This document shows, piece by piece, positions 8,882 to 16,300 of a DNA stretch of 64,000 nt. Position 1 is the first letter of the stretch; each line of letters begins with the position of its first letter. The notes below the pieces were generated by a model. The model saw only the letters and a list, made by a program, of their open reading frames with translations, did not search any database and had not been told where the DNA came from. The translations under genes and the position numbers were made by a program. The stretch is taken from the NCBI GenBank assembly GCA_030538675.1, contig JAUNTM010000002.1:4824-68823 (forward strand), in the 5' to 3' direction. Source of the DNA: Capnocytophaga sp. Lineage in GTDB: Bacteria > Bacteroidota > Bacteroidia > Flavobacteriales > Flavobacteriaceae.

Positions 8882-8899
8882 GGGGGGGGGTAAAAAAAA
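8882..8899 (+). repeat. G9 homopolymer followed by T and A8, in an AT-rich promoter region
   Basis: GGGGGGGGG (8882-8890) then TAAAAAAAA. Confidence 0.9.
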
Positions 8900-11683: not shown

Positions 11684-11715
11684 AAAAAAAACCGCCCTTT
11701 TCAGAGCGGTTTCTT
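11684..11715. terminator. Terminator between convergent ALDH and susD
   Basis: A-run-ACCGC...GCGGTTT. Confidence 0.75.
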
Positions 11716-11729
11716 CATGAAAAAAATTC

Positions 11730-13337: not shown

Positions 13338-16300
13338 TTAAAAAGTTACACTTAAACCAATGGAATTAATCATCACAACCGGATATCCGCTACCTCTTCC
13401 CGACGGAGCTTCGGGGTCAAAGCCTTTCAAGTAATCGGTAATGGTAAGGAGGTTCTGACCGCTGTAATACAGTCGTAATGATGATATTTGGAATTTCTCC
13501 AATACGTTTTGAGGCAGGTTGTAACCTACTTGCAAACTTTTGAGGCGCAGGTAGTCGGTGCTTCTGAGCCAGTATTCGAGGGTGTTGTTCTGCGGCATGC
13601 TTGTTGCGGCAACCGTCCCGACGGGCAGGCGGGGAACGCTTGCATTCACGTTATCGGGTGTCCAGCGGTCACGCCACAGTACGTTGGGCTTTTGGGCATC
13701 ACCGTTCGCTCCGCCAACCGCGTCGAAGTCCATGTATCCGTAGCCGCCGAGCGTTCCTTGGAATATCGCAAGGAAATCAAAATTCTTGTAGCCCAGCCCG
13801 ATGTTAAACCCAAAATGGTATTTGGGGAACGAACTTCCGAGAATGGTACGGTCGGCAGTAGTAATCTGGTTGTCGCCATCAACATCAACATAGCGTAAAT
13901 CGCCCAATTGTACTGCTCCCACGCGGTTAGGTGCCCACTCGGTCAGGTCGGCAGCGGTGCGGTACAGTCCGTCGGTTTTATATCCGTAGAAAGCATCTAT
14001 CGGGTTGCCTATACGGCGGATGTAACGTCCGGTGATGATTTCGTTTGTGCCGGCAAGCTCCAATAGTTCGTTTTTGTTGTACGATACGTTTCCGCTCAGG
14101 TTCAAGTCAAATTCGCCGAACGTGTCGCGGTAATCCACCATCAGTTCGATACCTTTGTTTGATACACGCCCTACGTTGTCGTAATAATTGCTCAAGGCAA
14201 ATGTTTCAGGAGCAGGAACGTTCATGATGATACCGGTAGTCTGCTTGTCGTAATAGTCGAGGGTAACGTTGATTTTGTTTTTGATGCCCAAATCAAGCCC
14301 GATGCCCCACGTTTCGAGTCCTTCCCATTTGAGGTTACGGTTACGCGCTTCGGCAATGGCAGCCCCCGATACGATGGTACTGTTAAACGGATAATCGTAC
14401 CCCAAAGAGAGCGTCGGTACGGTTGGGTAATAGGCGGTATTTCCTGAATCCAAAGCGTCTTGGTTCCCTAATTTACCCCATGAAGCACGGACTTTCACGT
14501 TGTTAAACGTTTCTCTGGCATTTTCAAAGAAAGCCTCTTCGGATATTCTCCACGCAGCAGACAGCGAAGGGAACGAACCCCAGCGGTTTTCTTTCGCAAA
14601 GCGGGAAGAAGCATCGTAACGCAAGTTGGCTTCAAACAAATAGCGGTCGAGTATCGAATAATTCAGCCTTCCGAAATAGGAAATCATGTTCAGTTCGCGG
14701 GTGTAGCCTTCCGCTTTCATTCCTTGCGTAGAACCTCCGTTTAAATCCTCAAGAGAAGTGCTTGGGAAATTTTCACGGTACGCATACGTGCGTTTGAAAT
14801 TGTACGTTTCCATGTGATACCCTGCCAATGCCGAAAGTGTGTGTATGCCGAACGTTTTGCTGTAATCTACCGTAAAGTCGGTGATGAAACGCTGGTCAAA
14901 ATCGGAATAAATAGACAACTTGGTAGGTCCTTGATATTTGGTAGGATTGTACTGGATTTCGTTGTTTTTCTCGTTATAATCCTGATTATAAGTACGTAAT
15001 GACATTAATCCTTTGATACGCAAATCTTCAATCGGGCGTATTTCAAGCGAACCGATTCCTAAAAAGTAGTCGCGGCGTTTTTTAAGCTGTGCTCCTTGGT
15101 CAATCCACGCGATGGGGTTTCCGTCGGAAATCGTGCCGTAAGTGCCGTCTTCATTTCGGTAAGGAATCCAAGGGGCGATGCGGTACGTTTGCCGCACGAT
15201 TTGGTCAAGACCACCGCCCACATAGCTGTTGTTGGGTTCTTCCAGATTTTGGCGGGTGAACGACATATTCATCGTTCCGGTAAGCCATTTTTTGGGTGTC
15301 ATCACCAAATTCAAACGGGCGTTGTATTGTTTTTTACCCGTGTACTTAATGATACCGTCTTGGTTTTGATGCCCGATAGAAGCCCGGTAGGTACTTTTTT
15401 CGTTACCGCCCGAGAACGACAAATCGTGGTTGTACAGCAGTCCCGAACCCGAATAAAGCAAATCCAACCAATCGGTATTAGGGTGCGTGTACGGACTTGT
15501 GCCGTTGCGGAAGAGCTCAATATCAGCATCGGTAAAGCGGGTACTTCCGGCATCTTTGTAGATAGTGGCGTACTCAGCCGAACTCATATACTCGGGAAGT
15601 TGTGTGGGAGCTTGATAGCCTACGCTGGCAGCGTAATTGACCGTGAAAGTATCTTTTTTACCCGATTTGGTGGTAATGAGAACGACTCCGTTGGCGGCTT
15701 TTGACCCGTAAATGGCAGCCGAAGCCGCATCTTTCAGTACCGAAATAGAAGCGATGTCATTAGGATTGATTTCGTTCATTGACGATTCCACACCGTCCAC
15801 GAGTACCATTGGGTTGGAGTTGTTGAGCGTCCCGATACCGCGAACCCGGATAGTAGCTCCGTCGCCACCGGGCAAACCGCTGGATTGTCGGATAGATACG
15901 CCGGGCAGAAGCCCTGCAAGCCCTGAAGAAACGCTTGTCATGGGGCGGCTTTCAAGAAGTTTGTTGTCAATGGTCGCCACCGAACCTGTTAAATTTACTT
16001 TTTTCTGAACCCCGAAACCAACGATGACAACTTCGTCAAGCTGCTGGGTGTCTTCTTTTAGTAATACATTGATAGTCAGTGAATTACCCCCCCCCACGGA
16101 TATTTCTTGCGAAATAAATCCGATGGAGCTGAATACCAGCACCTCGCCTTGTGCGGCATCAATGCGGTACTGTCCTTCGAAATCGGTAGCCACCCCGCGG
16201 GTAGTCGATTTCACCATCACGCTGACACCGGGTAGCGGAACTCCCTCAGCATCAGTAACCACGCCCGACACAGATTTGTTTTGTGCCAATAGCGAGTGGA

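Follow-up and report, generated by a model that had tools for sequence, protein, structure and literature searches.

A poly-G tract in the N-terminal extension of Capnocytophaga SusC transporters, probably a slipped-strand ON/OFF switch

The window, a 64,000-nucleotide stretch of DNA from a Capnocytophaga sp., carries on its reverse strand a susC gene followed by susD (Table 1). The SusC protein scored 934 bits against TIGR04056 (cut-off 368) and 62.2 against the TIGR04057 signature (cut-off 46.2), and with its N-terminal extension (NTE), plug and barrel and the adjoining susD it belongs to the SusC/RagA class. The two genes are likely co-transcribed, and the hairpin beyond susD is likely a terminator. 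They form a single susCD pair, with a MATE gene on one side and a convergent aldehyde dehydrogenase gene on the other, and no recombinase was found among the 16 window proteins scanned around them. For these reasons we rejected a shufflon or invertible locus of the type described in Bacteroides (bioRxiv 10.1101/521070; PMC9881135; PMC11868660).

Table 1. Features of the susCD locus, and G-run loci of two further types found in the genus
Feature	Position or locus	Strand	Remarks
susC, SusC/RagA TonB-dependent transporter, 1004 aa	13338..16352	(-)	N-terminal leader, NTE, TonB box, plug, barrel
NTE-coding segment, about residues 27-98	16059..16274	(-)	candidate portable module
G9 homopolymer, in-frame allele	16087..16095	(-) (coding strand)	C9 on the forward strand; end of V86 and G87-G89, loop late in the NTE
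TAA read immediately on a +1 slip	16084..16086	(-)	89-aa product
TGA read on a -1 slip	16076..16078	(-)	91-aa product
susD lipoprotein gene, 532 aa	11730..13328	(-)	PF07980/PF14322; 9 bases past the susC stop
Hairpin with flanking A/T runs	11684..11716		between susD and the aldehyde dehydrogenase gene; read by eye
Promoter-spacer-type runs	L020, L021, L034, L036, L038, L039, L054, L057, L062, L064, L067, L070, L088		
AATATTCGC-arm element	L018, L024, L025, L032, L033, L035, L086, L087		

Near the 5' end of susC the coding strand reads GTG GGG GGG GGT AAT TCA CTG, in which V86-G87-G88-G89-N90 are encoded. The initial annotation had read this run as a switch in which G10 gives an 89-residue and G8 a 91-residue product, and in which only G9, or a run differing from it by three Gs, yields the full transporter. 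Altering the run length in silico reproduced the codon reading and each of these predictions: runs of G5 to G13 gave products of 90, 1003, 88, 91, 1004, 89, 92, 1005 and 90 aa, respectively, so that G6 and G12 joined G9 in encoding a full transporter and all other lengths ended after 88 to 92 residues. The products of a single slip in either direction end upstream of the TonB box, plug and barrel.

The NTE (PF13715) lies upstream of the TonB box and has an Ig-like seven-strand fold in Bt1763 (PMC7782687; PDB 6ytc), and deletion of the Bt1763 NTE was reported to abolish growth on levan (PMC7782687). The window NTE is the same domain in the same place before the TonB box; unlike the NTE of Bt1763 and other solved SusC proteins, however, its late loop is longer by about two residues, and PDB alignments place the glycine run there. 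In the AlphaFold model of the window SusC (mean pLDDT 76) the glycines are in coil after strand 58-61, late in the NTE, with a local pLDDT of about 69. The model and the alignments thus agree with the location late in the NTE that had been assigned to the tract, and the natural occurrence of in-frame G6 and G12 alleles argues that extra glycines are tolerated there, as had been presumed.

Long G runs are in excess in this genome. G/C runs of length 5 to 10 in the 2.70-Mb genome number 1198, 123, 16, 10, 9 and 2, respectively, and the decay seen in the shorter runs extrapolates to about 2 runs of length 8 and 0.2 of length 9, compared with the 10 and 9 observed. Runs of at least 8 number 21, and 10 of them lie in susC genes. 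GGG makes up 15% of the glycine codons, and GGG GGG opens only 8 of the 276 Gly-Gly-Gly tripeptides in ORFs of at least 300 aa; seven of these eight are in susC genes and the remaining one is in a gene that we take, by motif, to be mreB-like. A G8 run alone proves nothing, because in-frame G8 runs are also present in two housekeeping genes, presumably mreB-like and guaA-like on sight.

The suggestion that paralogous susC genes share the tract was confirmed in the same genome, where 8 of the 29 susC genes with a scorable NTE carry G8-G10 at the homologous loop. The run is in frame in C36 (the window gene), C44, C62, C96, C99 and C103, and frameshifted in C11 (G8) and C178 (G10), which have open frames of 931 and 921 codons behind it; none of the 21 other scorable susC genes is shifted at the loop site. 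A second tract position lies directly after the predicted leader, with a frameshifted G8 at C113:5002 (L128:1503-1510) and an in-frame G9 at C113:11832 (L128:8333-8341), and a post-leader G10, also in frame, is found in another genome (L144). Full-length copies of the C178 and C11 genes were sought in the same species and none was found. For C11 and C113, exact look-up of three short or downstream ORFs in the protein collection gave no match, although the C11 downstream ORF does occur as P0247.

It is well established that G runs are error-prone, and PCR slippage has been reported above 10 G (PMC3786947). The frameshifted alleles could then be homopolymer errors of sequencing or assembly, with all the genes naturally in frame. 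In an A/T control, 166 runs of at least 8 flanked by coding-like sequence gave 12 flags, which we read as one frameshift within a gene and 11 gene junctions, two of the latter uncertain. About 1 in 166 coding A/T runs is therefore shifted, in contrast to 3 of the 10 susC G runs of the same assembly. G-run flags in this control amounted to 2 of 12, both in susC, the C113 case being too close to the start for scoring. The ORFs behind the tract in C178 and C11 recur in Logan contigs of other lengths (8331 and 5147 bases), perhaps built from the same reads, and one post-tract protein was found on 31 contigs. Errors would also leave unexplained why the runs cluster at one site, and we consider it very improbable that they account for the frameshifts. 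An A9 run at G000:C152:3029 (-) shows an apparent frameshift inside a gene, the downstream part of which we assume, by motif, to resemble an HD-domain/Pycsar-effector-like protein. Both mutS and mutL are present in the genome, and loss of mismatch repair was accordingly rejected as a cause; their presence may keep switching rates low.

Among 30 other genomes of the genus, 12 contain a total of 36 susC genes with G8-G12 at the loop site, five of them frameshifted. Most of these sites were retrieved by patterns requiring eight Gs or TAA, so G7 alleles are undercounted; a TAA-free pattern added one further gene. In eight genes, all in frame, the three glycines are specified by mixed codons, and the poly-G switch is therefore not universal. 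The orthologue of the window gene (L205/P0121) carries its own G9. A tract-less susC in another genome, L046 (G013:C36), has a frameshift at a run of five As (A5) that precedes the homologous loop by a few codons. At L043:6930-8552 (G023:C149) only the 3' 540 codons of the window-gene orthologue are left, with susD still next to them, and a 540-aa form of this orthologue occurs on several contigs.

Metagenomes contained alleles of different length in closely similar genes. The loop site of susC accounted for 15 of 33 pattern matches; 14 of these were scorable, with five frameshifted and two carrying an in-frame G6, and the natural alleles at the site span G6-G12. In the closest pair, L164 (G8, in frame) and L169 (G9, shifted), the flanks agree at 880 of 880 and 879 of 880 positions, i.e. 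at 1759 of 1760. L157 (G10, shifted), L174 (G9) and L167 (G6) represent one gene with 98-99% identity downstream, and L151 (G8, shifted) is 98.4% identical to L063 (G9). The differing alleles stem from different assemblies, any single record of which may hold a homopolymer sequencing error. Paralogues, relatives and near-identical copies thus all include frameshifted alleles. The absence of such alleles would have told against the initial annotation, and their presence supports the phase variation by slippage that it put forward.

Split forms of one gene, another expectation of slippage, were also seen within protein clusters. One cluster has 278 members, of which 15 were listed, in a list that favours named members and includes three other fragments. 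These 15 comprised six full-length forms, present on 81 contigs, and six forms whose start coincides with the tract or follows it closely, present on 45 contigs of up to 179 kb. A C. canis cluster of nine forms comprised two full-length and seven post-tract proteins, one of the latter on a 2.63-Mb contig. Forms starting with MGGGK match, at the protein level, an AAT-G8 site after the gain of one G. These post-tract forms are known as protein sequences, and some may be contig-edge calls. P0002, which is the P0121 protein from just past the tract, was found on 7 contigs versus 10 for the full form, and edges may contribute to it because the contigs are short. For the window gene, the best other match (77-78%) was well short of a second near-identical copy, and exact look-up of its 89- and 88-aa truncated products in the protein collection, where short products are often uncalled, gave no match.

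A scan of a genome collection, which missed some known sites of the genus, placed at least 24 of 64 matches at the susC site, 23 labelled Capnocytophaga and one labelled Bacteroidota bacterium. A pattern running from G8 to the TonB box matched none of 400 genomes of the family and none of 400 of the phylum; the same pattern finds only three of the eight genes of the window genome and missed two tract-bearing genomes of the genus, so these negative results carry little weight.

Stops had been described as placed in both slip frames. An immediate +1 stop is present in 55-56 of 57 tract genes, with 22.5 expected from codon use; the observed number is inflated because most sites were retrieved by TAA-containing patterns; in the eight own-genome cases, which were retrieved without TAA, it is present in all eight. 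A -1 stop within four codons was found in 49 of the 57, compared with 38.3 expected, and is mostly a product of a Leu codon followed by Ile or Thr codons. A random frameshift at the site runs into a stop after a median of 13-14 codons. Mixed-codon genes, which do not slip, have the +1 stop in 5/8 and the -1 stop in 7/8, and the tract-less paralogues C71 and C116 have the +1 stop too. Shared ancestry accounts for most of the stop conservation, and selection possibly maintains the +1 stop. The description of the stops as placed is thus only partly supported.

A nearly invariant +1 stop, together with the ability of the NTE to fold alone (PMC7782687), might be read as a sign of transcriptional or ribosomal slippage, by which a single DNA allele would yield two products, the full transporter and a secreted NTE fragment. 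The truncated product, however, stops before the last NTE strand and is therefore likely unfolded, and length variation in the DNA already accounts for the data. G runs, moreover, are not the usual motif for polymerase slippage. We find slippage at the level of expression barely credible.

G runs were also observed outside the NTE site. The window has a second G9 run at 8882-8890, which is intergenic, about 70 bases before a TAnnTTTG motif and upstream of a gene for a WecA-like sugar-phosphate transferase (PF00953); it possibly tunes surface polysaccharide expression. We take TAnnTTTG to be the Bacteroidota -7 promoter element. Of 43 runs of G8-G15 outside the NTE site, 13 end 7-9 bases before this motif and likely sit in the promoter spacer, and several of them precede short ORFs that are lipoprotein-like or outer-membrane-like; promoter phase variation is likely across the genus. 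In L031 and L050, G8 and G10 runs lie within ORFs whose N-termini resemble, as we presume from motifs, type I restriction specificity subunits, and these runs could possibly lead to variable methylation. An intergenic element that recurs in several genomes of the genus has G9-G10 between near-repeated AATATTCGC-like arms.

The NTE and the rest of the transporter have different relationships. The window NTE is 73-76% identical in amino acids to those of C99 and C11, whereas the bodies are 31% identical; C99 and C11 share 86% in the NTE versus 32% in the body. Between the window gene and its own orthologue the values are 59% for the NTE, 86% for the plug and 76% for the barrel. None of the full-length, more distant homologues compared, 113 for the window gene and 37 for the C178 gene, has the GGG(K/N/S) loop. 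When 82 fetched genes were grouped by plug-region identity, tracts fell in 21 of 44 transporter families, which is not a frequency because the set is enriched for tracts, and tract genes often have mixed-codon or tract-less orthologues in the same family. These comparisons suggest that NTE segments recombine between paralogues, and some swaps look recent. On an NTE tree, which is weakly supported and built on a domain too short for counting origins, the tract state needs 5 changes versus 7.1 with shuffled labels, with 28 of 500 shuffles as low.

Exchange of this kind could also operate on a neutral hotspot: the glycine loop would have arisen once, in a single NTE lineage, chanced on GGG GGG GGT and spread by gene conversion, and the frameshifts would be one-way losses of dispensable transporters. 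The partial relatedness of the tract NTEs by descent fits such a history, as do the mixed-codon versions, the L046 susC broken without a G run and the remnant in L043. It does not predict the rarity of GGG GGG at Gly-Gly-Gly stretches and its concentration in susC, nor the retention of the run in 13 genomes while the preceding codon varies (GTG, ACA, CGA, AAT, ACG, AAG, ATG and others). Moreover, five frameshifted genes have full bodies (921-1048 codons) with no further decay, and a second susC site and promoter-adjacent runs exist. We regard neutral spread followed by loss as unlikely.

At the level of sequence, the run behaves as a repeat contingency locus. The length of an in-frame homopolymer sets the reading frame, as in the window G9; the repeat is commoner than expected and restricted to one class of genes for surface proteins; and in-frame and frameshifted alleles of the same gene occur among the homologues, the window gene itself being known from one copy, with G9. 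We therefore consider it highly probable that the window G9 is a member of a genus-wide set of NTE-loop poly-G tracts, in frame and frameshifted, and a reversible ON/OFF switch operated by slipped-strand mispairing. Replication slippage would flip the state in both directions, and an OFF cell would make only the leader and an incomplete NTE; it would therefore have no surface SusC, and SusD would be without its partner. The glycine loop would be used because one glycine more or less is tolerated there and because the NTE segment is exchanged between paralogues, and such exchange would carry the switch to unrelated transporters. The weakest step is the proposed benefit: in the mouth, costly surface targets would be concealed from phages or antibodies, and part of the population would still retain each importer. 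The least supported parts of the proposal are a polar effect of slips on susD and selection by phages or antibodies, for which Neisseria receptors and Bacteroides shufflons provide the analogy.

A more ambitious version, toward which we are nearly neutral but lean slightly against, is that the NTE module with its poly-G switch acts as a plug-in cassette: by recombining onto susC genes that have been newly acquired, it would render them phase-variable. With the post-leader site and the promoter-spacer G runs it would generate a combinatorial surface code over glycan and nutrient importers (ten switches and 1024 states for this genome), and mixed-codon alleles would be locked ON.

Poly-G phase variation is known for the HmbR and HpuAB systems of Neisseria meningitidis (hmbR, hpuA; PMC3786947), which resemble the present case in that an in-frame G tract of a TonB-dependent uptake system turns expression ON and OFF by frameshift. 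In Neisseria, as described there, two haem systems have a single tract in each receptor, whereas Capnocytophaga has one homologous site in 21 SusC families, and its tract, unlike that of Neisseria, seems to move along with an exchangeable domain. Reversibility has been established in Neisseria; for Capnocytophaga it is inferred. In Bacteroides, a recombinase-driven SusC/SusD shufflon of the BT1040-46 type has been described (bioRxiv 10.1101/521070), and programmed inversions are enriched in SusC/RagA genes (PMC9881135). There too the surface element that varies is a SusC-type transporter, susC genes exchange 5' ends, and phage pressure is the proposed cause; those systems, in these accounts, depend on inverted sites and a tyrosine recombinase and select among alternative variants, whereas in Capnocytophaga every gene would switch separately, by run length. 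In a search with most subscription journals and supplements outside its range, no publication was found that describes susC genes of Capnocytophaga as switched by poly-G tracts. The "phase variation" considered in PMC4358021 concerns cell shape and was rejected there.

SusCD importer phase variation has thus been described in Bacteroides by way of DNA inversion, and the present case points to a repeat-slippage route in an oral genus of Flavobacteriaceae that includes commensals and opportunists of humans and pets. An invertase study in B. fragilis is likewise said to have dealt with recombinase-driven SusC/SusD phase variation. If the switch operates as proposed, many N-terminally truncated SusC entries in databases would be OFF states rather than pseudogenes, and differences between strains and colonies in glycan use and surface antigens would be predicted. 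The tract would also provide an ON/OFF marker readable in metagenomes, with which selection by phages, antibodies or diet could be tested, and new contingency loci would arise in an unusual manner if a switch spreads together with a shared domain.
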